A stretch of 64,000 bases of DNA from a virus (IMGVR_UViG_3300044680_000048:32001-96000), one strand, 5' to 3'. Counted from the first letter of the stretch, positions 10,001 to 51,297 are shown. Notes: generated from the letters alone by a model not told the origin. Program-made: numbers and translations.

Positions 10001-10690
10001 ATCTTGAGTTAGTCTCTTTATATCAAAAGCTTTCCGGGAAGCTTGAAGCCGGGAAGGATCTAGTCCTTGAGCTAACTCTTCTCTTAAGGGGTTAAAAGAA
10101 AAAGCATCGGCAAGCCCTAACTTTTTATTCGCCTTAGTATACTTAAGATCTTCTGCATCGTTAAGGTCTCTCAATTTCTGAGCAGCAAGTTGAGAACGTC
10201 TAGCTTGAACCGCCTGATTTTCTGAATCCTTACGGAGAGTTTTTTGGATCTCCCCTAAAGGTTGATCTGTAAGACCAGTAGTAGAAGAAAAAGATCGAAT
10301 TCTTTGTAGCTGACTAGCGGCTATTGCCCTAGCTTGTGCAATTAAATTATCACCAATAACAGTATAGGCGGTTTCTACAGCCCTATTTAACACCTGTGGT
10401 GCAGCAGCCACAGGAGCATTACCAACTATTGGAGCATTACCTCCTGCGGGAACTCCATTATTATTTACATTTATTCGTAAACCATTCTGTGCAATATTAA
10501 GAAGTTGTCTTAACTCATCTCCTACAAAATTTAATCTAACATCAATGGTAATTCCGGTTCTAGCAGCAGCTAGAAGTTCTGCCAGTTGAGCATTAGGAGC
10601 CAAATTGGCAGTAACAGTAAGCCCTCTAAGTTGATCTTGGAGATCTGAAAGGTTACTGATCCTGGCTGTTATATCTATCTCTTTAGCCAC
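7043..10690 (-). CDS. tail tape measure protein (1215 aa)
   Basis: Longest ORF of the tail operon, downstream of the G/GT chaperone pair. It is Ala/Gln/Leu/Lys/Glu-rich and coiled-coil-like throughout. It has a Gly-rich hydrophobic segment (FFSGLLGGPANAIGGAIGATTLGGATGVLAG). The GTG start overlaps the upstream TAG (TAGTG). Confidence 0.8.
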   Translation of the reverse strand: MAKEIDITARISNLSDLQDQLRGLTVTANLAPNAQLAELLAAARTGITIDVRLNFVGDELRQLLNIAQNGLRINVNNNGVPAGGNAPIVGNAPVAAAPQVLNRAVETAYTVIGDNLIAQARAIAASQLQRIRSFSSTTGLTDQPLGEIQKTLRKDSENQAVQARRSQLAAQKLRDLNDAEDLKYTKANKKLGLADAFSFNPLREELAQGLDPSRLQASRKAFDIKRLTQDKEAAQAVFFSGLLGGPANAIGGAIGATTLGGATGVLAGTSIVSATTAAFEKLFDTLKSASEVALDFEKSVAGTVGLLQATTEITRDGKPVSPAEQLGEQERIATRFQKTARVALAPLGVGGKEEFLLTQAYQEGRRGKATEGELKDVLPVLTAVLKPFNLGEAKEARELRDIGSGQRLSSTTVGPTIQALAPDLQNALSFGTPEDIQKAIEPLRGFYQAIKDGNQPLTEIYKAQFQLNTAQADAGESLNKALLPGLKAFNEFISNPSITKNLQNLAAAIGNLSSTATVVVIKLIEQTGQNNTNTQNLISETIRNNPVLKGLGVQNSVALNTFFPGIGDKVNADIEEDNQIGRLQTNAAQLAKLKAAGGNVGNLKNTSPGLQSGLNPLAKFNNILADYGLKPEDLDKFDSTSIASSGKNPFSQIAAATAGLAGLTRLSKEQQLSKRTPLLNLIEEGQTSLQSEHQKLYDTSTIGGAREANSAAQQDINARLKTQTEISSNLAERLKTLTKGTEEYNAVSNASAESELKRKQIIAEGTRTVRESIDLEIKRNNIRAQGFDTFTFSGRNAADAAGIKSAQANIELLKKRVANGTGNNEEDQAQLRSEQTKLAGLKRDQEKLPLDVYGSTLNLIEGFTKLKDTMADLDDKTKSLDISYRRTGRAQEDFKDERELRHLNRQENILTAADRVSELGGSVQGLPGELQGLVKVIDITKNSFEALDKSIADNITRQREINEAQKALNGVLGIDQGGSRLAKGESAEDQFDFSDRLNAAQSRLNAATLLPGLDGLENPFRKQFERDRAEKQYQSALNRNSDLRGSEEDADTESEFNISQKKNRREKANIPTERLNAQFSFLRQAQEFTSQLGDSNPALKAFLRKTIVDPGVNNIKDQLKDSGFDFSLPSEEEAEDTRKKQANKVVNRFNKTGEKRANESASQYKDRQKKDFDEAIKGVKEDLATNSKTLSQLSKTDLVDAISTGASISLNSQFA

Positions 10691-19555: not shown

Positions 19556-19767
19556 AGATTGAAAGATACGAGAACTATTATGGAGAGCAAGAGCTAACTT
19601 TCTGGTTTGGTAATAATTATTTCATGTTTGACTCCAAGGGTAACTTTGAATTCTTAGCTGCAGGTTATGGTAGTGGTTATGAAGTTGTTCCAGATATAAC
19701 TAAACGGGACACACTTAGCAAAGAAGAACGGGAAATCCTTATTAAATTCCTTCAGGAGATTGAATGA
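19552..19767 (+). CDS. hypothetical protein (71 aa)
   Basis: It overlaps both neighbouring genes by 4 nt, as expected for a translationally coupled operon. Confidence 0.5.
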   Translation: MKIERYENYYGEQELTFWFGNNYFMFDSKGNFEFLAAGYGSGYEVVPDITKRDTLSKEEREILIKFLQEIE

Positions 19768-20246
19768 AAGGACAGAAGCAAGTATTCTCTAGTACATATC
19801 AAAATTGGGAGACTCCTAAACCTTTATTTAATAGGTTACATGAAAGATTTAATTTTACTATAGATCTTGCCGCAAGCCCTGATAACCATCTATTACCTAG
19901 ATTCTATACAGAAGAAGATAATTCCCTAATTCAATCTTGGGTAGATGAACGGGGGTTCACTAACCCTCCTTATAATATAGCTCCAGAATTCATTGAAAAG
20001 TCCTATATGGAAGTAGCTTATGGGTGTATGGAGTTGAATCTTTTATTGGTTCCGGCAAGAACTAGTAACAAAGAGTGGGAAGAATTTGTATTCCCTCATG
20101 CGGAGGAGTTGATTTTTATCAATGGACGTGTTAAGTTTGGTAATAGTCCAACCGGTGCTCCTTTTCCTTCTGTTTGTATACTCTTCCGGGAAGACAATTG
20201 CGGGAAAGGTCCTAAAGTCAGTTGGATATCAGTAAGAGGTGAATAA
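19764..20246 (+). CDS. DNA N6-adenine methyltransferase, phage Dam family (160 aa)
   Basis: It has WETPKPLF, FTIDLAA and the catalytic NPPY motif (FTNPPYN), in the order typical of the small phage Dam family. Confidence 0.7.
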   Translation: MKGQKQVFSSTYQNWETPKPLFNRLHERFNFTIDLAASPDNHLLPRFYTEEDNSLIQSWVDERGFTNPPYNIAPEFIEKSYMEVAYGCMELNLLLVPARTSNKEWEEFVFPHAEELIFINGRVKFGNSPTGAPFPSVCILFREDNCGKGPKVSWISVRGE

Positions 20247-20760: not shown

Positions 20761-21954
20761 CTAAGAATGCCCTGTGAGCAAACAGCGGCTCTGAGCAAGG
20801 GGGTCACATAACGATATTAAATCGAACAGAACACTCAAGTGATAGAGGTTAGTTACTGGCCTTTCCACTAAAAAACTTCCAGGCTTGCCTTGCATATGGA
20901 ACTTAGCCAGTTGAGGAAGCGAAGCACGGAAGAACATAGTAGTTCCGGTAGGCATCTGCATATCTCTGATGAAGGGGATAGCAAGTCCGTTATTGTCTTC
21001 GTAGATCATTTGGATATCGCCAGGCTCAAGTCCTAGTCCGGCAAGTCTCTTTACGAGTACTTCGTCATAGCCCATTTTTGCCAGCGGCTCATTGCCGGGG
21101 TAGCGGTTGATCATCAAGTTACGGATAACAGGGATCTGGGTGTTATTGGTTAAAGCAACAACATCATTTAGAGCGTCAAAACCGAAGAAGGCAGCTAACT
21201 GTGTGATAGCTTGAGCAATCAAAGCATCAGTGAGGTTTCCCCCGCCTACTGCAATTGGTCCTACGGTTGATCTCGTTACCATACCACCAAGAGATGGGAT
21301 ATTAGGGAGAGCTTCATCGGTATTTTCCAGAGCACTCAAGAGCAGAGGGTTCATGGTCCGTTCCATACGGATCATTGCTTTCTGGATTTGTGCTTGGAGT
21401 TCATTCCGGCGGTAAGGTGATTGAGCAGCAAGTTCTTCCGCCATAAAAGAAACGTTAATCTGTTGACCGATAGCCATCAGGGTATTAGTTCTTTCCGACA
21501 AGACTGACTGTTGAACTGCTGGGAGATTACCTTCTACGTTGAAAGCTGACAATTGGTCATTACCAATGGTTTCTTCCGGAATCCGGATCTGATAATCAGT
21601 TGCCGGGAAAGAAGGTTTCTTTTTCAGGATGTTAAGGAATTTGGCTTCCGTATTAACAATCTGAGCAATATAAGGATAGAGACTTACGATTCTTACTGGA
21701 CCAAGGTCTACTCCGGTAACGTCTTTATTAACTACCATAGTAGAGAATGCGTCCGAGGAGTCGGTATTCATTCTTACCGGCATATTCTTTAGAAGACGGC
21801 TAACCTTTTCACGGGTTTGGCTATCTTTGCACTCTTGGTACAAGATAACATCGATAGGTTGCGGATCAGCTTTCTGAATCGGAACCAGAGCTTGGTTCCC
21901 CGCACTCTTGTTTTGAAGATTAGATACCAGATCTTCTGCGCCAAATTGAGACAT
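20761..21954 (-). CDS. major capsid protein candidate (397 aa)
   Basis: It lies immediately downstream of the protease/scaffold gene. A GGAG box lies 7 nt upstream of the ATG, and a strong terminator follows. The size is typical. No fold-level evidence is available from the sequence alone. Confidence 0.55.
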   Translation of the reverse strand: MSQFGAEDLVSNLQNKSAGNQALVPIQKADPQPIDVILYQECKDSQTREKVSRLLKNMPVRMNTDSSDAFSTMVVNKDVTGVDLGPVRIVSLYPYIAQIVNTEAKFLNILKKKPSFPATDYQIRIPEETIGNDQLSAFNVEGNLPAVQQSVLSERTNTLMAIGQQINVSFMAEELAAQSPYRRNELQAQIQKAMIRMERTMNPLLLSALENTDEALPNIPSLGGMVTRSTVGPIAVGGGNLTDALIAQAITQLAAFFGFDALNDVVALTNNTQIPVIRNLMINRYPGNEPLAKMGYDEVLVKRLAGLGLEPGDIQMIYEDNNGLAIPFIRDMQMPTGTTMFFRASLPQLAKFHMQGKPGSFLVERPVTNLYHLSVLFDLISLCDPLAQSRCLLTGHS

Positions 21955-21964
21955 TAATAACTCC

Positions 21965-24139
21965 TTACTGTTGGGCCCAATTGGCCATGATGAAACTGTC
22001 TAGTGTGTTTGCCGGTTGAGTAGCTTTATTTACTTCAACAGCTTTGTTCTGGATCTCAAGAACTTTTTCTACAAGTTCTTCCGCACTGGTGGAAGCAGCG
22101 GCTTCTACAGCCTTACTAATTGATTCGACCATTTTGGCAAGCTCCCCAATCAGTTTTGATTGATCAGCCTGGATTGATTTCTGTGCTTCTACAGCAGCGA
22201 CAAGCTTGTTGACTTTTTCAACAGCTTCCTTGTTAGAAGCAACAAGAGACTTTATTGTTAGGTTGGTTTCCGGAGAGAGTGAAGCTTCTACAGATTTACC
22301 AAGCTTTACGGAAGTCGGATCTTTATCTTCCGATTTTCCTAGTTTGACGGAAGTAGGGTCACTATCTTCGTTAGTAATTTTCTTAGTGTCGTTATCACCG
22401 TCGCGGTCTTCACCGCCAACACCCTCATCACCATCAGGTTCTTTGTGGGCCTTAACACACTCATCATCTTCTTCAGACTTCATGCACTCATCTTCTTCAG
22501 CAGAAGCTTTAGTGGAAACATCTTCGTACTTAGAAGGATCAGCATCACCGGAACCCGGATTTAGCTTAACCGCATCTTTTTCTTCTTTTGCCACTGATTT
22601 ACTATCCTGTATAGTGTTAACGTTAATTATTGTAGCGGAGGATTTATTTTGTGTTAAATTATCTCTCAAAGAAGAGGCATGAACATTTAGAAGTGTCCCA
22701 AAAGCCTCATAAGAATTAACTGCCCCTTCTGGCAATTCCATATTATGTGTCCAGATGGTAGGGCGTTCAGCAGATTTAGCAGCTTCAAGACGATGATGAC
22801 CATCAATCATATAGATATCTCCATTGCGGGAGATAGTCATTCCACCATCAAAATTTCCTTCTTTAACAAATTGTGCAACTTTTTCTGCGTCTACGGCAGA
22901 CTGAGTTGGTTTAACTTGTTCCGGACGAACCTGAACAAGGGGAAGACCCTTATATAATCCTGGATTACTAATCAATGCCTTAACAACAGAAAACTCAAAT
23001 TCACTTTTAAGAAAGTCTGGATACAGGGTTTTATTGATGGATTCTGTTAAAGATTTCTGTTCAGGAGGTCCGGAAGAATCTATTTCTCTTTTCCAAGCAG
23101 CCTTAATCTTAGATTTTATATGAGAAAGTTCTTCAGAGGAGTACTCTGAAGAATTCCTTTCTTGATGAATGTAATTCCAAGCTGCTCTGATGTGCTCTTC
23201 TGTATCTATAGGATAACGAGGTTTTTTATCTTCCTGGTAACCAGGATCTGCGTATTCTACATCCCCATAAGGTTTTTTCGCTTTCATCATTGCTGCTTCA
23301 GGAGCATTATCACACTCATGAGCATTATCTTCCGGTTCATCTCTATAGGCTTCTGGATCAGTAACTCCACCACCATTAGGGGGAGAAATAGTAGCTTTAT
23401 CCTCAAGGGCTTTTTGTTGAAGAGATTTGATTGCGGTTTTCATTCGAGCGGGAACATTTACAACCGATCTTTCTAGGTAGCGGGCAACTTTATTAATAGT
23501 TACTGAAACAGGTTTGCCGGATTCATCCACCTGTCCCGGTTCATGTGGGCAGGCATAAGAATAAATAGACATGTTACAGGAACTACAAACTTTATGGTTG
23601 GGGTCTACTAAAATACCTACAGAAATAGAACGAACAGTACCGTTTTTTATTCCTTTTATAAGAGGAGCATGGTAATCCTCAAGAGGAATGCCCCATGTTT
23701 CTCTAGGACCTTCTTTAGTCATCCTAGAAGAAAGGCAGATACCTAATGGAGGGAGATTATTAAGATTATGTGAATGATCCATGAGGACGGGAGTAGCTGG
23801 TCCACCGTCTACTATGTCCTGTTCAGCATCTTTGGAGAACTTATCTCCTTGTACATCAACCTCATTTCCAAGGCCTAGAACGTTAATATTACGTAAAACC
23901 ATCCACTGGTGGGCTTCTTGGGGCACAACAGAAAATTCATTAATGAGTTTCATTTCTTCCATAGAAGGAGATAAACTTTGATTCTCCTCTACCATTGTCT
24001 TAGCAGCTTTAAGAGTTCCGGTACTTCCCATACTCTTATACATAACTAAGCCGGTCTCTTCTTCAGGTTCCGGCAAAGACTTCTTGATAGAAACTGCTCT
24101 TACTTCTTCCGGAAGGACTTTTTTAAATTCTTCTACCAC
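21965..24139 (-). CDS. prohead protease - ParB/Srx-like domain - scaffold fusion protein (724 aa)
   Basis: The N-terminal part has HK97-type prohead protease-like segments (PVLMDHSHNLNNLPPLG, SISVGIL). A YADPGY...YPIDTEEHIRAAWNYI motif follows. The ParB N-terminal-type motif is VKPTQSAVD...MIDGHHRLEAA, with DGHHR at 22790-22804. An acidic tract and an Ala/Glu/Lys coiled-coil C-terminus complete it. GTG start. Confidence 0.6.
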   Translation of the reverse strand: MVEEFKKVLPEEVRAVSIKKSLPEPEEETGLVMYKSMGSTGTLKAAKTMVEENQSLSPSMEEMKLINEFSVVPQEAHQWMVLRNINVLGLGNEVDVQGDKFSKDAEQDIVDGGPATPVLMDHSHNLNNLPPLGICLSSRMTKEGPRETWGIPLEDYHAPLIKGIKNGTVRSISVGILVDPNHKVCSSCNMSIYSYACPHEPGQVDESGKPVSVTINKVARYLERSVVNVPARMKTAIKSLQQKALEDKATISPPNGGGVTDPEAYRDEPEDNAHECDNAPEAAMMKAKKPYGDVEYADPGYQEDKKPRYPIDTEEHIRAAWNYIHQERNSSEYSSEELSHIKSKIKAAWKREIDSSGPPEQKSLTESINKTLYPDFLKSEFEFSVVKALISNPGLYKGLPLVQVRPEQVKPTQSAVDAEKVAQFVKEGNFDGGMTISRNGDIYMIDGHHRLEAAKSAERPTIWTHNMELPEGAVNSYEAFGTLLNVHASSLRDNLTQNKSSATIINVNTIQDSKSVAKEEKDAVKLNPGSGDADPSKYEDVSTKASAEEDECMKSEEDDECVKAHKEPDGDEGVGGEDRDGDNDTKKITNEDSDPTSVKLGKSEDKDPTSVKLGKSVEASLSPETNLTIKSLVASNKEAVEKVNKLVAAVEAQKSIQADQSKLIGELAKMVESISKAVEAAASTSAEELVEKVLEIQNKAVEVNKATQPANTLDSFIMANWAQQ
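22289..22360 (-). repeat. tandem duplication DPTSVKLGKSEDK / DPTSVKLGKSVE inside the scaffold region
   Basis: Read in the translation at aa 594-617. The underlying unit is an imperfect 39-nt DNA repeat. Confidence 0.7.
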
Positions 24140-24203: not shown

Positions 24204-24282
24204 AGTAGGGTAGGGGAGTCTGGTCGTCCCCGCAAGGCTCATAACCTTGAGATCGTGAGTTCAAATCTCACCCTTGCAACCA
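24204..24282 (+). tRNA. tRNA with CAU anticodon (Met, or Ile2 if lysidine-modified), CCA encoded
   Basis: I folded the cloverleaf by hand. The D stem is GGGG/CCCC with a GG-containing loop. The anticodon arm is CAAGG-CTCATAA-CCTTG. The variable loop is AGATC. The T arm is GTGAG-TTCAAAT-CTCAC. The acceptor stem AGTAGGG/CCTTGCA has an A1-A72 mismatch and two G-U pairs, followed by ACCA. Confidence 0.75.
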
Positions 24283-25221: not shown

Positions 25222-26061
25222 CTAAAAGCTGCCCCTTAAGGTTTCATAGGCTAACTCATATCCATGGTTTATTAGGGACTTCCGGTCCTTCTTATAGTTA
25301 AAGTCTATTAAATTACGCTGAATATTACTCTCTGCCTTTACTACTATAACTTTAACCTCTCTAAACCGAGAGTTGGTAGATACTATGGAGTTGATTGTCT
25401 CAACAAATTTAAGTTCTTTCGATATGGAGATATAAGACGGTAATGATAAACCAGCCTGCATTACATCTAAAATACTGTTTATCTTGTAACAAGTCTCCGG
25501 CACTTGAGGTTGAAACAAGACAACAACATCGGCGCCCATTTCTACTGCCTGAGAAACCGAGAAGTTATTACTTAGCCCACCATCTAGGTATTGTTGACCA
25601 TTAAGAGAAACAGGCTCAAATAAAACTGGAGGTGAAGCAGATGCTCGTAAGAACGCCGGCAAGTCTTCTCCTAACTCATGAACGTCTTTAGTAACACCGC
25701 TCCAATCTGTAAAATTAGTAACGTTAATTAAGAATTTCTTAGGGTTTCCGGCAACTTTACCATTATCTATATATTTCTTTAATGTTCTTTCCAGAGGAGA
25801 AGAGTCGTATAAACAGAACTTACCGGAAAGAAAGTTACCAAATGGGTTTAAACTATAAACATCCGGATTCTTAATATTCATCCACAGATCTAGCATTTCA
25901 TCTATTCTATTTTGATGAAGAAAAAGACCATTCAGGCTACCAACGGAAGTTCCATGAAGAACGTCATAAGTAAGTCCTAATTCATGCCAAGCTTTAATCA
26001 TCCCGGCTTGTAGGATGCCCATTGAACCGCCGCCGGAAAGACATAGGTGGATATTAGACAT
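25222..26061 (-). CDS. patatin-like phospholipase (279 aa)
   Basis: It has the oxyanion-hole motif SGGGSMG, the GxSxG nucleophile GTSVGS and the catalytic Asp motif YLDGGLSNN. The Ser-Asp dyad is therefore intact. Confidence 0.8.
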   Translation of the reverse strand: MSNIHLCLSGGGSMGILQAGMIKAWHELGLTYDVLHGTSVGSLNGLFLHQNRIDEMLDLWMNIKNPDVYSLNPFGNFLSGKFCLYDSSPLERTLKKYIDNGKVAGNPKKFLINVTNFTDWSGVTKDVHELGEDLPAFLRASASPPVLFEPVSLNGQQYLDGGLSNNFSVSQAVEMGADVVVLFQPQVPETCYKINSILDVMQAGLSLPSYISISKELKFVETINSIVSTNSRFREVKVIVVKAESNIQRNLIDFNYKKDRKSLINHGYELAYETLRGSF

Positions 26062-26494: not shown

Positions 26495-27304
26495 TATTTA
26501 CTCCGCATCCATAAAGACTGACTTTGTAGCTATGTTGACAGCCGTTGTGCTTAGTGTGGTGATCGTCTCGACATTGCACGCAACACCTGATATCGGGACA
26601 TCTGTCGTTGTAGACGCAGCTAGTACTGACGCACCGCCGTTAGTACTGATGTAGAAACTTACTGTGCCAGGTATAGAGCAATCAACCGCCATTGTGTATA
26701 CGGTGTTGTAATTTATTGGGACCGTCGTAGTGATCACGTTTTGCGCTGAGCCTGTGCCAGTTACACAACGCCAGTACTGAGTAGCATCTACTGCGGGCGA
26801 GTAGCGAAATGCGGCCACGCTAACTGCGGTCCCAGGTGTATTCGTTCCTGTGCAATATGCAGCACCACCGCCTAGCATCCCCACCCAGATCCGGCAATTC
26901 TGAATGTCTGTAGAACTTGATCCGGTCCTAATAGTCGCTATATATCTCGGTCCTGGGTACGTATTATTGAATACTCCCCAGTTTGCATTTGCTTGCGAAG
27001 AGCTACCGGCGTAGGTGCCCGAGGTAGTTGAAGTAGCAAAGTTGACTGCGAAATCTAATCCAGCAGTACCCCACAGCGTCGTAGCAGTGCCCGAATTTGT
27101 GGGACTAACTGTGTTCAAACCTCCCGAAAAATATACAGAAGTCGTTGCGACTGCTGGATAACTATAGGTTCCCCATCGCCGCGGACGAGCGCAGGTGATT
27201 GACGGGAACATATAACTATTAACCCACGCACCCGTCCCAGATCCAGTATTTTGAATTGTCTGCCCGATGTTGCCACCGGATGGTAAGCCGCCTCCACCTC
27301 CACC
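26090..27304. other. GC-rich compositional island (fibre C-terminal domain plus downstream ORF)
   Basis: Sampled 60-nt lines here are 48-57% G+C, against 35-40% in the flanks. The CCGG sites here are never in TTCCGG or CCGGAA context. The right edge coincides with a Gly6 linker at 27287-27304. Confidence 0.6.
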
Positions 27305-30300
27305 AGAGGCTGTAGAGGCAATAGTTATTGTGCTATTAGTAGAATTAAGAGTTAATGTAGTATTGGACCCGGCAACTAATGCATTAGTTAAAGCTGAGTA
27401 TATATCAGTAGCTACAGGTGCTCTAAAAGTAGGCTTGTTTGCAGCTCCTGTTGTAGGTCCAAATAACCCTGTTCCTGAAGCTTGATTAATTAGAGAAAGT
27501 TGAAGAGTTCCGTTAGCTGTAAGAGGAGAATTTGTTGCTGGAGAGGTAAAAATTACATTATCTGTAGTTAATCCAACAGAGGTTAAAGCCCCAGAAGCAT
27601 AATTACTTAAGGTTATAGAATTAGCCGCATTACTAACTGTAATTCCTACACCAGTTATATTAGCCGGACTATAAGATCCTCCAGAAGTAGATCCTATAGG
27701 TATTTGACCATCTGTAGGGACAGTAGAAACTCCAGTTCCACCTGAGTAGACACTGGCTATCTGAGGCTTGATAGTTCTCCAACCACTAATTCCATCACTT
27801 ATAACGCCCATGACTTGGAATTTCAGCATGGTTTTGGATGTAGAACCGCCATCAAAGGTATCGGTTCCATTAGTAGTTACAGTACAAGCATTAGTCCCAG
27901 TAACAGTATTATTATTAAAATAAAATACTTCTGCTACAACACTTGAAGCAGCCGGGAGAATCAAGGTTACAGGAGCAGTTGAGGCATCCATATTCTGGTA
28001 GCCCGGAGAAGTATTGGTTAAAGTTGCACTAACTGTAGCTGAAGCGAATCCTTGGAATAAATTAACATAAGCCGGGAGTCCATTAACTACTCCTATTGCT
28101 TGAGAAGTTAAACCAACTCCTAAAGCAGACTCTACATTGGCATTTGTGAAGTAAGGAATATCTCCCATAGTTCCTACTGCCGAAAGATTAATCTGTGGAG
28201 TTGAAGTTGAATTGGTTACATTAACTGCAATTGAAGGAATAGAACTACTGGCAGATACAGAACTTACTGTGCCGGAACCTCCTCCTGAAGCAGTAGAGGC
28301 AATAGTAATAACACTTCCATTATTAGTTAGAGTAATATTATTTCCGGCAGCTAGGGCTCCAGTAAGATCACTACCCGTAAGGTTCCTAAATGTAGGAGCT
28401 GCATTACCACCACTTGCTGGACCGGCAAAGATAAGTCCTGAGGCTTGATTTACAAAAGTTCCTGTTAAAGTTCCAGAATTTATAACAGGAGAGCCTGAAA
28501 CAGTAAATATGGTATTAGGGAGACTTAATGCTACAGAGGTAACTGTCCCATTGGTATTTGAGCTTCCGGCATTAGAAATAATGTTTAAAGTATTTCCATT
28601 GTTTGTTAATGAAAGGTTACTTCCACTAACTGTAATTGCATTAGTTAGGTCACTTCCTACTATATTGCGATAAATTGGAGAATTTGGACTTCCAGAAGCT
28701 GGACCACTTAAGAAAGTACCAGAGGCTGCACTTGATAGATTAAAACTTAAAGTTGGCGTAGTATTTGAAGTGCTAACTGATGTTGTAAAAATTGGATTGG
28801 CAGTGCCCGCTGAAAAAGAAGTTACTGTCCCACTAGTATTAGAAGAACCAGCAGCGCTGATAATAACATTAGAACCATTGTTATTGACTGTAACATTAGT
28901 TCCGGCTTGAATAATTGATCCTAAATCATATCCAACTAAATTCCTGTAAGAAGGACTTCCCACAGCCCCACTTGCAGGTCCAGATAAAATTTGACCAGAA
29001 GCTGTATTGGATAGACTAAAACTTAAAACTGGAGTAGTAGTTGAATTAGCAACTGAAGTTGTGAACACGGGATTAGCCGAACCAGCCGAAAAGTTTGTAA
29101 CGGTTCCTGAACTAGAGCCACTTCCAGCTACTGCTGAAATAGTTAGAACTCCTCCACTATTATTAAAGTTTATATTAGCCCCAGCAGCAAGACTTCCAAT
29201 TAAATCATTACTATTTAATGTCCTATAAGTAGGAGCAGTAGAACTACCTGAAGTTGGACCAGCTAAAAAGGTTGCCGAAGCTGCATTGGAAATAGTATAA
29301 GAAATGGAAGGTGCAGTAGTAGGGTTAGAAACCGCACTTGTAAATATAGGAGCTAGGTTTCCAGAAGAGACAGAAGTGACTGAACCATTCCCGCTCGATG
29401 TTGAAGATATTATTATATTTCCATCGGAATTTCCAATGTTTATATTACTTCCAGCAGTTAAGCTATTAGGAACCCAACCTGTGGCAGATCCTATTAACAG
29501 TTGTCCAGGACTATTACCTTGAGGAAGATCTGTTAAGACCATTGCTCGAAAATTAGGAGTTCCAGAAGTGGAACTTGGTGAAGCAAATATCTGTCCAGAA
29601 GATTGTGAAGATAAGGTGTGAGAAATTACGGGAGTAGTAGTAGGGTTAGTTGTACTAGAAGTAAACAGTCCGGTAAGTCCTGAGTCACTTACGGAAGTTA
29701 CTGAACCTGAAGCATTATTAGTAGCAGTAATTGTTATCTGAGAACCATTATTGCTTAAACTGATCCCAGAACCATTATTGAAGTTTCCGAAAATATCATT
29801 ACTGATAATTCCCCGATAACTTGGGGCTCCAGCAGTGCCAGAAGCAGGTCCGGCAAGAAATTGTCCTGAGGCTTGATTTGTTAGAGAAAAAGTAGTACTA
29901 GGTGTTGTAGTTGAAGTAGCTGTGGTGGAAGTAAAGATAGGAGAAAGGTTGCCAACAGCGACACTTGTTACTGACCCACTAGCTAAACCAGTTGCGGAAA
30001 TAGTTCCACCAGAAGATATGTTTATATTACTTCCAGCAGTTAAAGTAGGAACTACATCAGAAGCTGTTAATGGTCTAAATCCAGGAGTGGCATTTCCACC
30101 AGAGATTGGTCCAGCATACACCTGCCCTGAAGCTTGACTAGTAACAGTAAAGGTTAAATTAGGTGTGCTGGTGGGTGTAGCTACGGATGTAGTAAAAAGC
30201 CCACCAGCATTTCCAGAAGTGAAACTACTTACTGTTCCACTACCACCAGAAGAGGCAATGACTAGGCTACTTCCCACTAAGGTTAGAGTAATATTTGAAC

Positions 30301-30838
30301 CCGCAGAGAGGGCAGAAATTAAATCTGAACCAACATGTAATCTATAGTATGGAGTTGCCGCAGACCCTGTTACAGGTCCTGCTAAAAACTGACCAGAAGG
30401 AGCAGAAGATAAGAGAAAACTTAATGCTGGTGTGGAAGTGGGATTGGAAACTGAAGTGGTGAATATAGGATTTGCTATTCCAGCCGAAAAGTTTGTTACT
30501 GTTCCTAATCCAGCTCCAGAAGACCCAATAGTTAATGTATTGGTCCCAGCAGTTAGAGAGATTCCGGCACCTGCTACTAACTTGAAAGAATTAGGAAGGT
30601 TGGACGTTTCATTAGCTTGAGTTACATAGGTGCCGGAAGGATAACCTCCACCAGCAGCCGAGACTGTTAAATTTCCACCTGAGAAGGTTAACGTGATATT
30701 ACTTCCGGCAGCAATAACACTTGCTCCGGTAAGAGTAGAGTTAGAAGAAGTTAATAGATAAGGAGCATTCGTAGGCGCTCCACCAGAGCTTCCTCCGGTA
30801 GATGAACTAAAGAATATTGGGGGAAAGAAAAACTTCAC
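26498..30838 (-). CDS. giant repeat-containing fibre protein (1446 aa)
   Basis: It has about ten repeats of 85-100 aa, an internal non-repeat domain, a Gly6 linker and a 262-aa C-terminal domain. It has almost no charged residues. Confidence 0.7.
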   Translation of the reverse strand: MKFFFPPIFFSSSTGGSSGGAPTNAPYLLTSSNSTLTGASVIAAGSNITLTFSGGNLTVSAAGGGYPSGTYVTQANETSNLPNSFKLVAGAGISLTAGTNTLTIGSSGAGLGTVTNFSAGIANPIFTTSVSNPTSTPALSFLLSSAPSGQFLAGPVTGSAATPYYRLHVGSDLISALSAGSNITLTLVGSSLVIASSGGSGTVSSFTSGNAGGLFTTSVATPTSTPNLTFTVTSQASGQVYAGPISGGNATPGFRPLTASDVVPTLTAGSNINISSGGTISATGLASGSVTSVAVGNLSPIFTSTTATSTTTPSTTFSLTNQASGQFLAGPASGTAGAPSYRGIISNDIFGNFNNGSGISLSNNGSQITITATNNASGSVTSVSDSGLTGLFTSSTTNPTTTPVISHTLSSQSSGQIFASPSSTSGTPNFRAMVLTDLPQGNSPGQLLIGSATGWVPNSLTAGSNINIGNSDGNIIISSTSSGNGSVTSVSSGNLAPIFTSAVSNPTTAPSISYTISNAASATFLAGPTSGSSTAPTYRTLNSNDLIGSLAAGANINFNNSGGVLTISAVAGSGSSSGTVTNFSAGSANPVFTTSVANSTTTPVLSFSLSNTASGQILSGPASGAVGSPSYRNLVGYDLGSIIQAGTNVTVNNNGSNVIISAAGSSNTSGTVTSFSAGTANPIFTTSVSTSNTTPTLSFNLSSAASGTFLSGPASGSPNSPIYRNIVGSDLTNAITVSGSNLSLTNNGNTLNIISNAGSSNTNGTVTSVALSLPNTIFTVSGSPVINSGTLTGTFVNQASGLIFAGPASGGNAAPTFRNLTGSDLTGALAAGNNITLTNNGSVITIASTASGGGSGTVSSVSASSSIPSIAVNVTNSTSTPQINLSAVGTMGDIPYFTNANVESALGVGLTSQAIGVVNGLPAYVNLFQGFASATVSATLTNTSPGYQNMDASTAPVTLILPAASSVVAEVFYFNNNTVTGTNACTVTTNGTDTFDGGSTSKTMLKFQVMGVISDGISGWRTIKPQIASVYSGGTGVSTVPTDGQIPIGSTSGGSYSPANITGVGITVSNAANSITLSNYASGALTSVGLTTDNVIFTSPATNSPLTANGTLQLSLINQASGTGLFGPTTGAANKPTFRAPVATDIYSALTNALVAGSNTTLTLNSTNSTITIASTASGGGGGGLPSGGNIGQTIQNTGSGTGAWVNSYMFPSITCARPRRWGTYSYPAVATTSVYFSGGLNTVSPTNSGTATTLWGTAGLDFAVNFATSTTSGTYAGSSSQANANWGVFNNTYPGPRYIATIRTGSSSTDIQNCRIWVGMLGGGAAYCTGTNTPGTAVSVAAFRYSPAVDATQYWRCVTGTGSAQNVITTTVPINYNTVYTMAVDCSIPGTVSFYISTNGGASVLAASTTTDVPISGVACNVETITTLSTTAVNIATKSVFMDAE
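27305..30505 (-). repeat. ~270-300-bp coding repeats of the fibre (about 10 units, interrupted around aa 860-1040)
   Basis: The repeat unit reads G[ST]VT[SN][VF]S.G...P[IV]FT[ST]SV.N.T.TP.LSF.LS..ASGQ.LAGPASG....P.YR.L...DL. The similar antisense shadow ORFs at 27267, 28212, 29007, 29304, 29922, 30165 and 30432 reflect this periodicity. Confidence 0.75.
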
Positions 30839-31394: not shown

Positions 31395-31403
31395 ATTGTA
31401 ACT
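31395..31403 (-). promoter_or_regulatory. AGTTACAAT promoter-like box
   Basis: The minus strand reads ATATCTAGTTACAATTC, overlapping the portal stop and 25 nt upstream of the ATG at 31370. Confidence 0.4.
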
Positions 31404-32916
31404 AGATATCTTGGTATGGAAGAGTATCAATTACAGCTTCTTCCCCTACTGGTAGTTTCATAGGAGTTGCCGGAGGTACTACTTCAGAAGCAACTGAGAT
31501 ATTGGGAAGAACCCTTAGAGGTTTCTTACCAGCAGTTCCACCTAGAGGAGGAAGTTTAGCTATTTCAGTTCTGGCTTCATCAACAGACATAAATCCATCC
31601 AATTTACCAATATCAACTAAGGACTTAGCCATATTCATAGTAAAGGAATTGAATCTATCCCTTGCCCGAATCTGTACGTCTTTTATTCCGGCTCTGGGAA
31701 GGATTTCAGAATTAATGAAATTATCAACTATCTTAACTACTTGATAGATAGCTTTATCAAAGATATCAGCAGCTTCATCAGCAAGAGAAGCAGCATGGTA
31801 TTGCTGATTAGCATTAGTAATAATTCCTAAACGTTCATGGGGGACACCCATTACATGAGCAACCTGTTTAGCAGCTTTATCAGAAGTTTTGTGGAAGGCT
31901 CCATCTAAGTCAGCCAGATTATTCATCTGTTTAATATCACGGGCACCCGTAAGGACTACAGTATCAAATCCGGCTCTGGCTCCAGAATGGTTTGCCCGAA
32001 GTTCATTTTCCATTTGACGGGCAAGAGCCATACTATTAGCCCCGGGAATTCCCGTAGTAGACTTATTATTATCCATAAGGATAGCCATGCCAATAAGACC
32101 GCCTTTCTGGAAGACCATATTGTTATACATAGAAGCCTGAAGATCTGCTTCTAAATCAGTCAAGAGAGTAGCCAATGGGGCATTTCCTAAATCATAATGT
32201 CTCATTGACCGGCGGTAGACACAATGCTTAAGTTGGTCCACTTCAAATATATAAGCTACAAATCCCACATAATAAATCCATTGGACAACTCTTTGTCCAT
32301 CAGGACTAAATCTTGGTTCAAGGTATTGCGGAAGAAGGATTTTAAGATCCTTAAGTCCACCCAACATATTATTTCTGGGCCAAACCCAAAAGTTACCATA
32401 AATCTTAAGGTGATCTACAAGCTCTAGACGGAGTTCATCTATCCGGAATTCCTTACAAACTCTCTTAGCTTTCTCAAAATTCTTCTCATTACCTACTAAG
32501 TAGTAACCATCAGAAGCAATTTCCCTAGAGAACTCTTCCCGGCAACACCATACAGCCCAATGGTTCTCAGCCAAGAAGGCGAAAATCCCAAAAGGGTTAG
32601 GGAATAACTGCCAGAAATTAGATCCTTGTGCCCGGAATCCATATAAATCTCCAAGCCCAAACATCCCAAAATACTTATTCTGTTGCTGTAACCCCTTACT
32701 CTCTACATAAGTCTTAGTAAAAGAAGCAGCTTCACTCTTAAATTGATTAATTAATTTAAAGGCAGTTTGTGGATCTTTATAAGTAGAGAGGGAAGAAAGT
32801 TGAGTAACTAATCCATTAATTCTACCAATAGCCGCTTTCTCTACTGGATCTGAAATTACAAGAGCTTCGGCAGCCTTCTTTAGGGCTTTCTCTTTCTTCT
32901 TTTTCTTCTTACTCAA
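31402..32916 (-). CDS. portal protein candidate (504 aa)
   Basis: The size and its position one gene downstream of the large terminase support the call. TTG start gives a poly-Lys N-terminus (MSKKKKKKEK). No motif-level confirmation is possible here. Confidence 0.5.
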   Translation of the reverse strand: MSKKKKKKEKALKKAAEALVISDPVEKAAIGRINGLVTQLSSLSTYKDPQTAFKLINQFKSEAASFTKTYVESKGLQQQNKYFGMFGLGDLYGFRAQGSNFWQLFPNPFGIFAFLAENHWAVWCCREEFSREIASDGYYLVGNEKNFEKAKRVCKEFRIDELRLELVDHLKIYGNFWVWPRNNMLGGLKDLKILLPQYLEPRFSPDGQRVVQWIYYVGFVAYIFEVDQLKHCVYRRSMRHYDLGNAPLATLLTDLEADLQASMYNNMVFQKGGLIGMAILMDNNKSTTGIPGANSMALARQMENELRANHSGARAGFDTVVLTGARDIKQMNNLADLDGAFHKTSDKAAKQVAHVMGVPHERLGIITNANQQYHAASLADEAADIFDKAIYQVVKIVDNFINSEILPRAGIKDVQIRARDRFNSFTMNMAKSLVDIGKLDGFMSVDEARTEIAKLPPLGGTAGKKPLRVLPNISVASEVVPPATPMKLPVGEEAVIDTLPYQDI

Positions 32917-33648: not shown

Positions 33649-36573
33649 TTACCAGAGACGGAAGCCCAGTCCACCTAAGAACTCCTTAAAGGATTGATTT
33701 TCCTTTCGGTCTATCTCATCTTGGATTTGTTGTTGAGCGGATCTTTGATGGCGGGAAGATTCTGTTTCATGTCCTTCATTAGTTCCCATTTGAGGAGTTT
33801 TATCTTTTCTTTCCGGCACATCCTTATATATAGTTTCTATTTCACCAGAAGGTTTTTGTTCAACTGAAACTTTATCTACAATAACAAGACCGGCGGAATC
33901 CTTCATATCCTTCAATATATTATATTGATGGTAGATGACATAGGAGAGAGCATCAGTAGGGTGAGTCATACAGTAAATTCTGTCTCTGCGGGTAGCCCGC
34001 TTAGCATTAGCATCCCCATTAGGGTCCAGTTGATCCCTGAGGGATTTATCCTTCCACTTAAGTTCTTCCAGAGATTTAATAGTATTTTCACAATTGGGGG
34101 AGATTAGAAGAAATCCATCCTCACATGCGTGGTTCATGGTATCCGTTCTTTCTTTAATGGGCATAGTATTGGTATCTGTGACCATTTCACAGAAGAAACC
34201 ATTACCTTCAAGGATTCTAATAATCTGTGCCGGACGAGTAAGTTCACGGGAAGTCTGTCCTCCCCATCCATGAGGATCACAGAAGATGAAAACTGTCTGA
34301 CCTAAATAGTCTGGCTTATATCTCCGGACAAATTCATTAGCTACGTCTACAACATTAGCTCCCCCATATGGATTATCCATAGTAGGACCAAACATTACTA
34401 TTTCATCTTTAACGGTAAATTTTCCATCTTCATATTGTCCAATGATAGAGCATTGAGGTTTAAGGTTAAAATCTAAAGCCCAGAAGTAATCCTTGGTGGG
34501 ATCAATATCCGATTTTTCTTCTAAAACATTACCTAGAAGGGTGAATTTATTGTATACATAATCGTCCCGGATATCCATGTTGGTCTTACCCTGAACATAG
34601 ATTTTAAACATAGTCTCATCATAGGTATCTAACATTCCCTGAAAGTAGTCTGCGGGAAGATGTTTATTATGCATTGACTCGGATTTGATTACCCGAGTAT
34701 ATTGTTGATCTCCGGGACAGAAGAATCTTTCTCCTTTCCACGTCCAATAGTCCTTAGAAGACTTACAGCTGGGACACTTGTAATCTAATCCATCCTTTTC
34801 CCAAGTAACCCTTTTCTGATAGGAAAGAAGACATTTAATACAAATCTGACATTGACAAGGTTTTCCTACTGATATTTCTACGGGGTGTTCAGAAGTGTCA
34901 ACTCCATCGAAGCGTTTAAATTCAAACTCTTGATTCATCCAACCGTCACGGGTTTTTTCTGGATTTGTACAAAGAATAATCTGCCTAACTTCTGGAATAT
35001 TTAAACGCAGACGGGAAAGCAAAGTATAATAAGAGTCCGCATTAGGTAGAAGGTGAGGTTCTTCTACTCCAATGATTCCTGCGTTAGCTCCAACTATTTT
35101 AATGAAATTAGTTAAATTGACTAAAGTTAAATCCGAACCATTTGCAAATCTTAAATTATTCTGTTGATCCGAGAGTCTATTAAGGATTGCCGGATGATCC
35201 CATTCCTCATCAATAGTGAACATTGTCTTAAGGGTGGGTATCAGGTTTCTTTTCAATAGAGGAGCATCCATCCCGCCAATGATAGATTTACATCCAGGAT
35301 TGCTACAAAGTGCATCGACGATGCAAGCGTCCATTCCAAAACTGTTATGAACAACAGTGAAGTCATCTAGAAGAAAAAGAGAATCTCCATCAACAGTAAA
35401 TCCATAATAGTTACCCACGCCTAGTTTTTTAATAGTAACCCCAGTAACTAAAGGATCTTTCTTTAATGGGGAAAACCTAATCTTTTTTCTTTCAATTTTC
35501 GTAGGTATTCTATAAACATCTCCATAAATACAAACTTCATAACAAGTATGTACTGCTCCAGTAGAGATATTACCAGAAGCCCTTTTTTCTACTCTGTCTC
35601 TTTTACGAAAGGTAACTCCCAGTCCTAAACTTTTTGCAAGAAACTCAATTTGTTTGGCAATTAATTCATTTTTTTGAGTTATTGTAAAAGAAGCTTTACC
35701 ACCTTTATCATTTTTAGAGACTGTTCCATCACTATCTATTAAGCCAGCCAAAAACTGTAATCTATCACTTTCGGAACTTGTTAGGTAATCATGAGGTATG
35801 TGTTTATTATTTAAAACATTAAGTTCTCTTAAGTTATTTAAAAAAGTATTACACCCTTTGGACCTTGAATTAATAGAAGTGGTTGAATAATGTAAATTGT
35901 CGCCATGATCTGTTAGTTTTAATCCTAATTTTAAGGCATACTCTTCAAAATAATTAACTACCTCAAAATCTGGACTGGTTATTCTAGTATTATTAGAATT
36001 TCCATTTCCAACCCAATAGGATAATATATAAGGATCTATTAATAATTCTTTAGTGTTAGGGAAATTAATTAGGCTACTTCGATAAATCCTATGTCTTTTT
36101 TGGTCATGTTTAGATAAGGATAAATATTCCTTTACTGATAAATTTTTTATAGTTCCATTAGGTACCTTATAAAGGTCAGTAGTTTTCAAAGAAAGAATAT
36201 GGGATTCATTACAAATAAAAGATGAACCCTTATTGGGAATTACCTTGTATAACATATCCTCTCCTTTAGCTAAAGAAAGGACATTTCTAGGCTTAGAGTC
36301 AGGTCCCATTACCTGATCTCCCTCTACCACATCTTGAACCATTTTAATGGTCCCATCATACATTAATATGGGGGTATCAATCCCAAAACACTTACCTGAA
36401 CTTTTTTAGCCGAAGCCACCCACAGAAATTAATGCATCACTGGTATGCCAGTGAGGGCGTTTATTTGGCGGCATCTTCGAAATAAAGTAGCGCTTTTGTA
36501 ATTCATTAGGACCAGGTTCAGCAGATTTAGAACCGGTAGTCCAGAGATTCACAGGTGGAATAGGCTTCGACAT
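33649..36573 (-). CDS. terL: terminase large subunit, interrupted by a P-loop intein and carrying an in-frame TAA at 36406-36408
   Basis: An AGGAGG box lies 8 nt upstream of the ATG at 36573. The N-extein MSKPIPPVNLW...ALISVGGFG-stop-KSSGK is in frame with the 904-aa track ORF. Splicing gives G-x-K-S-S-G-K-S, which matches Walker A GxxxxGK[ST]. Walker B is GIIGVEE, and LCTNP is the coupling motif. Confidence 0.75.
35344..36390 (-). mobile_element. intein with LAGLIDADG homing endonuclease (349 aa) inserted in the terL P-loop
   Basis: It starts at Cys (CFGIDTPILMYDGT). Block B is CNESHILSL. The LAGLIDADG motifs are YWVGNGNS and LAGLIDSDGTV. The C-terminal splice junction is FTVVHN followed by Ser. 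Confidence 0.85.
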
Positions 36574-36587
36574 ATATCACCTCCTAA

Positions 36588-37157
36588 TTATTCATCGTCA
36601 TCATCAAAATACTGATGATTATCAGTAGTAATCCTCTTAGGATCTACAACTTCTGTCACTTCTAAATGATTTCCAGAACCTGCTAGGTCTGTATTACCAG
36701 AAGTCATCTGAACTTGTTTAAGTCTTTCCGATTGAACTACTATCTGTAATAGACGGAGTTCATTCTGGATGACCATATTGGTTTCTTCCCGCGCTTGTTT
36801 ATTTGCATCAATAGCCGCTTTAAGGTCAACCTTATATATAGGATTACCTAAGGCATCTGCTCCACTAGGAACTCCTTCTTCCGCCATCTTAGCTATTCGT
36901 TTATAATTATCTAACCGGACTCTAGGGGAAGACATTTCATGAGATTCTAAATCCTCTCGGGCAAACTTCCTTAAAATATTTATATCAGATTTGTATTGAC
37001 GGGAGATTTGCCCTATAATAGACTCAATAGATTCTTCGGAAGAAGTTTCCCGGAAGACTCTTCGATATTTGTCCTTAACTGCATAAATATTGTCAGTTCT
37101 GGCCATTTCAGTAATGAGCCAAACTTTCTTATAAAAGGGGAACTCTTCATCTATCAT
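36588..37157 (-). CDS. putative terminase small subunit (189 aa)
   Basis: The call rests on position only: it lies immediately upstream of terL and is the first gene of the leftward operon. It is helical with an acidic C-terminus. Confidence 0.35.
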   Translation of the reverse strand: MIDEEFPFYKKVWLITEMARTDNIYAVKDKYRRVFRETSSEESIESIIGQISRQYKSDINILRKFAREDLESHEMSSPRVRLDNYKRIAKMAEEGVPSGADALGNPIYKVDLKAAIDANKQAREETNMVIQNELRLLQIVVQSERLKQVQMTSGNTDLAGSGNHLEVTEVVDPKRITTDNHQYFDDDDE

Positions 37158-48517: not shown

Positions 48518-48594
48518 AAGATTACAAAGTTAGACAATTTATTTGCTTTTGAGCCAAGACTGCATTGGCTCTTAGCTTTTCATGGGGTATTTTA

Positions 48595-50331: not shown

Positions 50332-50334
50332 TAG

Positions 50335-51297
50335 ATGTCCTTATTAGAAACCCGTTCATATTTTAAACCATTCCAATATAATTGGGCTTTTGAAGCCTAC
50401 AATAAACAACAACAGATACATTGGCTGCCGGATGAAGTCCCTCTGGGTTCTGATATTTCAGATTGGAATACCGGAAAGTTGAGTAACTCAGAAAAAAACT
50501 TATTAACGCAACTATTTAGATTCTTTACCCAAGCTGATGTTAGTATTGCTGAAGGGTATATAGATAAATATTTACCAATATTTAGACCTCCAGAAGTTCG
50601 TATGATGCTTACTGCCTTTGCTAATATGGAATCCATACATATGCACGCCTACAGTAGACTTTTAGATTCCGTAGGAATGCCGGAAGTTGAGTATAGTAAG
50701 TTCCAAGAATATGAGGATATGAAGGCCAAACATGACTACTTGGATACCATTAAACCTTCTTCTTTAGAAGAGATAGCTGAGACCCTGGCTATTTATTCTG
50801 CTTTTGGGGAAGGGCTTCAATTATTCTCTTCTTTTGCCATTCTTTTAAACTTTTCTAGATTTAACAAAATGAAGGGAATGTCCCAGATAGTAACATATTC
50901 TGTACGTGATGAGACACTACATGTGGACTCTATGATTAAACTTTTCCACATCTTCTTAGATGAAAATCCTAAAATTTGGAAAAGTAATTTAAAGAAAAAG
51001 ATATATTTGGCCTGTCAGGATATGGTATTATTAGAGGATAAGTTTATTGATCTTGCTTTTGAACAAGGAGGAATTGAAGGCTTAGATAAGGAAGGCGTTA
51101 AAACGTACATTAGGTTTATTGCCGATAGGCGGTGTTTACAATTGGGACTTAAACCTGTGTATAAACAAAAGAAAAACCCGCTAGGTTGGCTGGACAATAT
51201 ACTAAATGCAGTAGAGTTAGCTAATTTCTTTGAAACAACATCATCGGAATACTCATCTGGAGCCTTAACAGGTTCATGGGAAGAACTTAAATGGTAA
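50335..51297 (+). CDS. nrdB: ribonucleotide reductase class I beta subunit (320 aa)
   Basis: The ferritin-like diiron ligand motifs MESIHMHAYS and RDETLHV are present. It lies directly after nrdA. Confidence 0.85.
   Translation: MSLLETRSYFKPFQYNWAFEAYNKQQQIHWLPDEVPLGSDISDWNTGKLSNSEKNLLTQLFRFFTQADVSIAEGYIDKYLPIFRPPEVRMMLTAFANMESIHMHAYSRLLDSVGMPEVEYSKFQEYEDMKAKHDYLDTIKPSSLEEIAETLAIYSAFGEGLQLFSSFAILLNFSRFNKMKGMSQIVTYSVRDETLHVDSMIKLFHIFLDENPKIWKSNLKKKIYLACQDMVLLEDKFIDLAFEQGGIEGLDKEGVKTYIRFIADRRCLQLGLKPVYKQKKNPLGWLDNILNAVELANFFETTSSEYSSGALTGSWEELKW

Follow-up and report, generated by a model that had tools for sequence, protein, structure and literature searches.

Several proteins of tailed phages combine an HK97-type prohead protease with a scaffold, among them P2 gpO, lambda C/Nu3, Mu gpI/Z and HK97 gp4, and P2 gpO, lambda C/Nu3 and the C-terminal tail of HK97 gp4 are targeted to the capsid interior. 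We know of no enzyme module between the protease and the scaffold in any of these four, and literature searches turned up none. In phage T4, the internal proteins and Alt enter the prohead via the scaffolding core and, once the prohead protease gp21 has trimmed them, remain with the DNA until they are injected. Head-loaded proteins of T4 are also cited by Iyer, Burroughs, Anand, de Souza & Aravind (2017; PMC5512222), for whom ParB/Srx domains are hubs within the polyvalent proteins of phages, occurring solo or fused and typically encoded beside virion genes, with P1 DdrB being incorporated into the head, and who favoured nucleoside triphosphate (NTP)-coupled DNase or NTP-sensing roles for such domains (PMC5512222). 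A polyvalent protein joins two to fifteen effector domains, often along with LPD domains, in a single chain that is delivered with the DNA. The subject of this study is one gene in a 64,000-nucleotide stretch of viral DNA (IMGVR_UViG_3300044680_000048:32001-96000), hereafter the window, which encodes a 724-amino acid (aa) polyprotein that joins a prohead protease, a DUF6582 domain, a ParB/Srx module, an acidic linker and a helical C-terminus in a single open reading frame (ORF).

Like P2 gpO, lambda C/Nu3, Mu gpI/Z and HK97 gp4, the polyprotein has an N-terminal HK97-type protease, a helical C-terminal part and a gene directly upstream of the capsid gene; it differs from them in its additional Cys/His insertion, its DUF6582 domain and its long acidic linkers. 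With the polyvalent and MuF head effectors (PMC5512222) it has in common a ParB/Srx fold encoded among late or virion genes and borne on a head-associated carrier, and its module is homologous to residues 1118-1185 of the Claudette protein as well as to repeats in the MuF-fused protein P0166. The carrier, however, is a protease-scaffold and not a MuF, portal or giant multi-effector protein, only one effector-type domain is recognisable in it and no LPD domain was found, although the ParB-like domain itself is common to the polyprotein and bona fide polyvalent proteins. Scaffold-like copy numbers (tens to hundreds) would be expected here, rather than a few per virion. The T4 internal proteins and Alt share the load-release-inject logic that we propose below, but each is made from a gene of its own, carries a short targeting peptide and is not a ParB/Srx protein, whereas the cargo here is a covalent part of the polyprotein. 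A ParB/Srx domain in the procapsid had been regarded as lying outside standard head-assembly schemes in the initial annotation of this DNA; because head-packaged ParB/Srx domains are already known (PMC5512222), what is unusual is confined to the vehicle. A carrier that is itself the protease-scaffold polyprotein, with the scaffold-level copy number this implies, appears to be undescribed, and our literature search for ParB paired with a prohead protease or scaffold returned nothing relevant.

We read the polyprotein (79 kDa, isoelectric point (pI) 5.0, net charge about -35) as a combined head-maturation protease and scaffold with a small accessory enzyme module in its flexible middle, the module being a scaffold-loaded, protease-released, NTP-using effector that would be ejected with the DNA, a reading to which we give an even chance. 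Its features, with coordinates counted from the first nucleotide of the window, are as follows.

21965..24139, minus strand: gene for the protease-DUF6582-ParB/Srx-acidic linker-helical C-terminus polyprotein, a single uninterrupted ORF with a GTG start
23909..24139, minus strand: N-terminal leader (aa 1-77), poorly predicted, with K20, L22, G30 and P58 invariant
23420..23908, minus strand: HK97-type (S78-like) prohead serine protease domain (aa 78-240), from fold search, hhalign and motifs
23543..23587, minus strand: CxxC...CxH insertion (C185, C188, C197, H199; aa 185-199), zinc ribbon-like, invariant in the alignment of relatives (A4)
23087..23287, minus strand: DUF6582 (PF20223; aa 285-351, PYGDVEYADPGY...RYPIDTEEHIRAAW), E=3.8e-17, 62.8 bits vs a cut-off of 27.3
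22649..23035, minus strand: ParB/Srx-superfamily module (aa 369-497, 14.3 kDa, pI 5.8), from an AlphaFold2 (AF2) model, Foldseek, profile matches and family alignment
22790..22804, minus strand: DGHHR motif (aa 446-450), aligned at the position of ParB box II GERR and sulfiredoxin GCHR, and identical to the DGHHR of SerK
22280..22648, minus strand: acidic low-complexity linker (aa 498-620), net charge -15, with conserved motifs EDDEC(M/V)K and GG.D.DGD.DT
22293..22369, minus strand: 39-bp tandem duplication in two copies encoding D(S/K)DPTSVKLGKS(E/V), from Tandem Repeats Finder
21968..22279, minus strand: amphipathic, helical C-terminal region (aa 621-724), conserved in all relatives, including those lacking the ParB module

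Profile and fold searches backed a ParB/Srx fold for the module, which is single-copy within the window, and extended it to aa 369-497, beyond the ParB N-terminal-type domain first annotated at 22742-22948 (aa 398-466); the fold stands, while a strict ParB N-terminal-type cytidine triphosphatase (CTPase) does not, the motif being DGHHR and not GERR. The AF2 model of the module, built from only 4 sequences, had a predicted local distance difference test (pLDDT) score of 91.3, and its top 50 Foldseek matches in the PDB all belonged to the ParB/Srx superfamily (E down to 8.7e-5, probability 1.00), with template modelling (TM) scores normalised to the target of up to 0.69, for a sulfiredoxin. These matches included ParB-CDP (6sdk), sulfiredoxins (6ky4, 1yzs, 3hy2), Noc, Atu1540, 1VK1, SerK, SbnI, KorB and PadC, and in BFVD the module matched phage 'ParB/Sulfiredoxin' proteins and polyvalent proteins. 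At the sequence level, phmmer placed H. pylori ParB/Spo0J (4umk) as the top PDB match (E=0.005, aa 398-466), PHROG 1033 ('ParB-like partition protein') was matched at E=1e-4, and a profile (A3) of 20 family members, fused and solo, matched ParB 4umk (E=0.004), SerK 5x0j (0.005) and a plant sulfiredoxin (0.026). The nearest Pfam families are ParBc_2 (PF08857) and DUF1015, the former matched by 18 of the 20 members at E<0.1 and the latter by 11, while PF02195 (ParB_N) was touched by one. For the window's protein, ParBc_2 stayed under its cut-off of 23.6 (22.3 bits for the isolated module, 17.3 for the whole protein) and NCBIfam gave no match to the module, so that an activity cannot be transferred to it from a characterised family. 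As a separate observation, the recent Pfam model PF23719 ('Antitoxin VapB-like') was matched by 8 of the 20 family members (best E=7e-6); it was also noted for P0141, P0166 and P0204, with stronger matches in P0141 and P0166.

Conservation within the family is concentrated on a small set of residues: E382, Q413 (in PTQ), D446, G447, H449 and R450 are invariant, H448, R438 and G432 nearly so, and what the solo homologues have in common are the ParB/Srx pocket motifs PTQ, DGHHR and R438. Q413, the Gln of PTQ, is in register with the box I Gln of ParB. As modelled, the module is compact and has the alpha/beta fold of the ParB/Srx superfamily, in which a small mixed sheet packs on helices; PTQ and DGHHR, the latter fitting the Gly-x-x-Arg pocket signature of the superfamily, are its conserved motifs for a putative nucleotide pocket. 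A canonical ParB clamp it is not, since DGHHRLEAA stands where such proteins have the GERRxRA box and since helix-turn-helix (HTH) and C-terminal dimerisation domains are absent, the module ending after two short helices (aa 477-496) that are followed by the acidic linker. No ParA match was seen among the window ORFs that were scanned, a subset of those in these 64 kb of an approximately 112-kb contig. With SerK, SbnI and 1VK1 (DUF1015) the module shares an identical DGHHR, the profile match to SerK 5x0j mentioned above and Foldseek matches to 5x0b, 5x0k, 5uje and 1vk1 (root-mean-square deviation 2.3-2.5 Å over about 75-80 residues), and two family members match the NCBIfam SerK model (best E=1.5e-6). 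Neither is it a SerK, since the catalytic base Glu30 of that enzyme (in KPHE; 5x0j is the E30Q mutant) is Gln413 (in KPTQ) in the module, and since the 129-aa module lacks the C-terminal domain of the roughly 240-aa SerK. The module has DGHHR in common with kinases and the Gln in common with ParB CTPases, but the catalytic acid of both is missing, and its chemistry may be NTPase, phosphotransfer or nicking. Electrostatic DNA binding by the module was also considered, and rejected at a pI of 5.8.

The distribution of the family beyond the polyprotein suggests a link to the virion. An exhaustive HMMER search of 1.84 billion representatives (E<=1e-3) recovered only 96 proteins: those of the fused clade, some 20 that stand alone at roughly 110-290 aa and have the same motifs, and large multidomain ones; a word-indexed homologue search gave 0 matches for the isolated ParB region and only 4 proteins for the family profile. 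The partner domains in the large proteins (Zeta toxin, NUDIX, ART-PolyVal, 2H phosphoesterase, topoisomerase IB and PI3K-like kinase) are classic conflict effectors, and one of these proteins, P0166 (4638 aa), has a MuF head domain at its N-terminus, together with several copies of the ParB-like domain and with GNAT domains. The best matches in cultured phages were to a 3164-aa 'DarB-like antirestriction' protein of Ralstonia Gervaiseviruses, and hhalign aligned the family profile with the protein of Ralstonia phage Claudette over aa 1118-1185 (probability 96.5%, E=7e-10). The Claudette protein is bona fide polyvalent, because it carries SLT, LPD3 and LPD38 domains, and mass spectrometry has detected gp69 of the Bcep22-like phage JC1, a protein that is likewise annotated as DarB-like, in purified virions (PMC9144972). 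We did not assign the module to the DdrB-like ParB family, because it showed no detectable similarity to P1 DdrB: hhalign of profile A3 against DdrB gave no meaningful alignment (7 columns, probability 0.2%), in a comparison of a single sequence with a profile whose sensitivity is limited. One DdrB-like trait is nevertheless present, as the gene for the module lies among late/virion genes and its relatives lie within MuF- and SLT/LPD-containing virion proteins. The suggestion, made with the initial annotation, that a packaged or ejected protein acts here on DNA or nucleotides gains indirect support from the occurrence of the same ParB-like family in capsid-delivered polyvalent proteins. Solo and fused members together form a DGHHR ParB/Srx subfamily without a curated model or known activity, which is a good biochemical target because it recurs in capsid-delivered proteins. 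The neighbourhoods of two solo homologues (L004, L005) held no recognisable genes. A weak solo match (E=0.01), suggestive but too weak to use, was to gp176 of Acidovorax phage ACP17 (L009, 5884-6471), which bears a DarB-like antirestriction note and is encoded just downstream of the NAD-salvage genes for a nicotinamide mononucleotide (NMN) adenylyltransferase/NUDIX protein and a nicotinamide phosphoribosyltransferase, with one hypothetical ORF between.

For the N-terminal domain, which had been called prohead-protease-like, a fold search, alignment with HK97 gp4, motifs and gene position all bore out the call, and it is these that carry it, because sequence profiles were sub-threshold or weak: Pfam S78 (PF04586) scored 12.5 bits against a cut-off of 21 (E=0.16), hhalign gave a weak score against the S78 domains of DUF6582 proteins (E=0.035), and a PDB sequence/profile search with this domain gave no match. 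Foldseek against BFVD, using an AF2 model built from 6 relatives (mean pLDDT 56, core about 70-84), returned 48 matches at E<=1e-3 (best E=6.5e-7), of which the named ones were almost all prohead or head-maturation proteases. When a profile of the 6 relatives across the N-terminal/protease region (A4) was aligned with HK97 gp4 by hhalign (P=0.0036), H124 fell on the catalytic H65 and S173 on the catalytic S114; both residues are invariant in the 6 relatives. The motifs are DVQGD (aa 95-99), DHSH (His124), SVG (Ser173) and ERSVVNVPA (Glu223), the last of which parallels EISVCTFPA in HK97 and the S78 motif EISLVDRPA. From fold, motifs and gene position combined, we accept the domain as an HK97-type Ser/His prohead protease. 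The CxxC...CxH insertion sits between the catalytic Ser motif and the E-x-S-x-V-x-x-P-A motif, shows weak Zn_ribbon_11 signals in 3 of the 6 members, and is without counterpart in HK97 gp4 and the S78 domains compared.

The acidic tract and the tandem DPTSVKLGKS duplication of the initial annotation were both recovered, the former with 35-40% Asp+Glu in aa 521-580 and the latter with copies at aa 594 and 607. In the C-terminus, described there as coiled-coil and scaffold-like, aa 621-724 contain only 3 Pro or Gly residues and have a hydrophobic periodicity of 3.5-3.6 residues, a composition compatible with an amphipathic helix or coiled coil, and the scaffold or capsid-targeting role of this region is presumed. 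A nested scaffold gene like lambda Nu3 was sought and rejected, as none of the in-frame starts inside the ORF is preceded by a strong Shine-Dalgarno sequence. K-S dipeptides are over-represented in the polyprotein (14 observed vs 6.1 expected, p=0.0016) and are found at its module borders (K238, K362, K499, K602, K615 and K630), with one in each 39-bp duplication copy, as a candidate protease site, and one directly after the ParB module in 4 of 5 relatives. A K-S-(A/G) is conserved near residue 16 of the capsid proteins, in the window as LQNK-SAG. The HK97 gp5 sequence is FNK|SLGSDA at K103/S104, the known maturation site of that protein. Cleavage of the linkers at K|S is a hypothesis from these sequence patterns. 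Four K-S dipeptides also occur in the C-terminal tail of HK97 gp4 (L008).

Comparison with the closest relatives separates the constant parts of the polyprotein from the variable ones. As first annotated, it is the product of a single gene and not of two, and in four proteins from other samples (P0002, P0003, P0005 and P0121) a single ORF likewise unites protease, ParB module and helical C-terminus. Such fusions are rare, numbering five in the databases searched, and two further close relatives lack the module.

P0001 (window): ParB module present; DUF6582 present, central
P0002: ParB module present; DUF6582 present, at the extreme N-terminus
P0003: ParB module present; DUF6582 absent
P0005: ParB module present; DUF6582 absent
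P0121: ParB module present; DUF6582 absent
P0004: ParB module absent; DUF6582 present
P0006: ParB module absent; DUF6582 absent

Protease and helical C-terminus are kept in 7 of 7 close-clade proteins, and the ParB module is dispensable for head assembly, because P0004 and P0006 keep both parts without it. Mean identity among the five ParB bearers is 0.45 for the ParB module, 0.52 for the protease, 0.38 for the C-terminus and 0.32 for linker 2, with linker 1 and the pre-ParB segment mostly gapped or divergent. Where it is present, then, the module is as conserved as the protease, which points to selection on a function of its own. In P0002 (L001, 10001-12190), DUF6582 stands ahead of the protease leader and has been shuffled within the orthologous gene.

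The steps by which such a protein could deliver its module may be outlined as follows. The helical C-terminus would bind the inner surface of the capsid protein and target the polyprotein to the procapsid interior, in which case every copy with its ParB module would be enclosed in the procapsid. The protease would then cut the linkers, with candidate K|S(L/A/V) sites at 238, 362, 499, 602, 615 and 630 that echo FNK|SLG of HK97 gp5 and LQNK-SAG of the capsid protein, one of which would be doubled by the tandem duplication. Too large for the capsid pores, the folded 14-kDa module would stay with the DNA and be ejected into the host, where it would act early by binding or hydrolysing NTPs, as a phosphotransferase, NTPase or nicking nuclease, most likely in the service of counter-defence or host takeover. 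Packaging, cleavage sites, virion persistence and the activity of the module are all inferred.

A number of observations weigh against this delivery scheme. Proteases of the HK97 type usually degrade themselves and the scaffold, and the small peptides so produced exit the capsid. For the K-S enrichment, significance is reached in only 4 of 7 relatives, and the protease-domain model, with its pLDDT of 56, is low in confidence. As regards the module, it falls under the Pfam cut-off and has no NCBIfam match, the catalytic Glu of SerK is replaced by Gln and that of ParB by His, and its mildly acidic character speaks against simple electrostatic DNA binding. Finally, the link to virion-packaged polyvalent proteins is one of distant homology over only about 70 residues, and the neighbourhoods of the solo homologues are uninformative.

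An alternative is that the module acts inside the procapsid or capsid and is not injected at all. By analogy with the CTP-induced engagement of N-domains in ParB, it might control scaffold oligomerisation or release through nucleotide-gated self-dimerisation, or it might engage or organise the incoming DNA. Being physically part of the scaffold, the module would be present at scaffold stoichiometry, and both the alignment of its PTQ Gln with that of ParB box I and the presence of ParB-CDP and ParB-CTPgammaS N-domain dimers among its best structural matches are consistent with such a role. We nonetheless consider it unlikely, as P0004 and P0006 have the same protease and C-terminus without the module, which is thus not needed for scaffolding, as the family also occurs solo and in polyvalent effector proteins without a scaffold role, and as the module is acidic and lacks an HTH.

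Another possibility, which we find improbable, is that recombination placed an inert domain in a linker that tolerates it, where it would be a passenger or spacer devoid of enzymatic function, degraded during maturation and lost together with the scaffold. The inter-domain region does tolerate insertions, deletions and shuffling, the module lies below curated family thresholds, and scaffold and protease fragments of the HK97 type normally leave the capsid; a passenger would, however, hardly be expected to be as conserved as the protease among relatives of about 45% identity, to share with solo homologues exactly the ParB/Srx pocket motifs (PTQ, DGHHR and R438), or to give a very confident AF2 model from only 4 sequences.

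A genuine ParB partition or CTP-clamp domain fused to a head gene, for plasmid-like maintenance or parS binding, is effectively excluded: the H. pylori ParB/Spo0J match and the PHROG 1033 label speak for it, but GERRxRA has given way to DGHHRLEAA, HTH and C-terminal dimerisation domain are lacking, the nearest Pfam families are ParBc_2 and DUF1015 and not ParB_N (PF02195 being touched by one of 20 members), and the gene is in the late head operon. An artefact in which two genes were joined by a sequencing frameshift or chimeric assembly is likewise effectively excluded: nothing was found in its favour, the one oddity being a GTG start without an obvious Shine-Dalgarno sequence upstream, and against it stand the five proteins from different samples with protease, ParB module and helical C-terminus in one ORF, the lack of an internal start codon with a strong Shine-Dalgarno sequence, and N-terminal conservation that backs the annotated start. 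This start is credible because the N-termini of homologues (MVENFKSF or MVQQNPSF) align with the polyprotein from the first residues and because K20, L22 and G30 are invariant among the homologues whose starts coincide with its own.

The DUF6582 domain connects the polyprotein, read as a scaffold-loaded effector carrier, with a wider set of head proteins. It corresponds to the YADPGY...YPIDTEEHIRAAW motif, rightly noted as conserved in the initial annotation, and scored above the Pfam cut-off. Among the best 120 of 470 homologues, most have DUF6582 fused to head proteins, with prohead proteases (PF04586, PF14550), Mu-like protease/scaffold (PF10123), DUF2213 and capsid or portal domains as fusion partners; we found no mention of DUF6582 in the literature. 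Four other DUF6582 head proteins (P0015, P0024, P0088 and P0105) contain 2H phosphoesterases, with P0015 also having a weak match to Acb1 (anti-CBASS), and another, P0065, combines rubrerythrin/ferritin with a Mu-like protease. There is a conceptual likeness here to the loading of encapsulins, in which an HK97-fold shell is filled with enzymes via a C-terminal targeting segment, and the rubrerythrin/ferritin of the related DUF6582 head protein is of a typical encapsulin cargo type; the polyprotein differs in belonging to a bona fide tailed-phage head module. One of the prohead-protease matches in BFVD bears the annotation Dps.

A bolder reading, tentative and with the odds in our view against it, sees in the protease-scaffold polyprotein a modular chassis by which tailed phages in general load cargo: inserts between the protease and the C-terminus would be enclosed at scaffold stoichiometry, cut out at K|S-type sites, retained and injected. 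Its cargo here would be an undescribed DGHHR ParB/Srx module acting on nucleotides or DNA in early counter-defence, and elsewhere a chassis marked by DUF6582 would bear 2H/Acb1-like phosphoesterases or ferritin-like proteins. If the module is indeed loaded and injected, this would be a third route of effector loading, distinct from T4-style targeting peptides and from MuF/portal fusions, with a possible yield of tens to hundreds of enzyme molecules in each virion, and it would tie the biology of scaffolding and maturation to the arms race between phage and host. New anti-defence enzymes might also be sought among the inserts of protease-scaffold or DUF6582 proteins, and the arrangement suggests a natural way of getting foreign proteins packaged in phage heads.

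The head module that contains the polyprotein gene is of the tailed-phage kind and includes genes for portal, terminase and tail or fibre; the polyprotein gene itself lies between the portal and capsid genes, directly upstream of the latter.

20761..21954, minus strand: major capsid protein gene, SU10_MCP-like (Pfam PF17236, E=1.2e-7)
31402..32916, minus strand: portal protein gene, at the start of the head-gene block (Pfam Phage_portal, E=2.6e-17; PHROG 12)
33649..36363, minus strand: large terminase with intein, Hint and LAGLIDADG homing endonuclease domains at aa 1-280

The capsid gene starts 10 nucleotides past the stop codon of the polyprotein and has a strong Shine-Dalgarno sequence, AAGGAG. 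The order portal, giant fibre-like protein, lipase, small ORFs, polyprotein and capsid is kept in 2 related contigs (L001, L002). Neither the whole polyprotein nor the capsid protein had a tblastn match among 50,697 phage records, and no cultured relative was found; PHROG and Pfam matches were also absent for most neighbouring window proteins. Since the Hint domain of the terminase begins at the first residues of its ORF, either the gene is perhaps interrupted or its N-extein, the ATPase part, has a coding sequence elsewhere, for which 36588-37157 is a candidate.

In the 145-nucleotide gap directly upstream of the polyprotein gene there is a tRNA-Met (CAT anticodon, 79 nucleotides) at 24204-24282 on the plus strand, opposite to all flanking structural genes. 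Outside the structural block, the plus-strand half of the window (37807-64000) encodes a family A DNA polymerase (43273-45840), a class I ribonucleotide reductase (48565-51297), a DegT-type aminotransferase (55402-56427) and an RNA ligase (58093-59316), and a DNA methyltransferase is encoded elsewhere on the plus strand (19764-20246). Two large ORFs, at 37807-40647 (946 aa) and 7043-10690 (1215 aa), had no family match. Between the portal and head genes, 26498-30838 (minus strand) encodes a highly repetitive protein of 1446 aa, rich in Ser, Thr, Gly and Ala and without a Pfam match, which resembles a fibre or decoration protein and whose counterparts in relatives vary in size (1632 aa; 1027+714 aa). 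The structural block also contains, between the fibre-like and head genes, a patatin-like phospholipase (25222-26061, minus strand, E=8.5e-30), the slot of which is filled in L001 by a GDSL lipase (7981-9201), and this lipase slot may hold a swappable virion-associated lipolytic enzyme.

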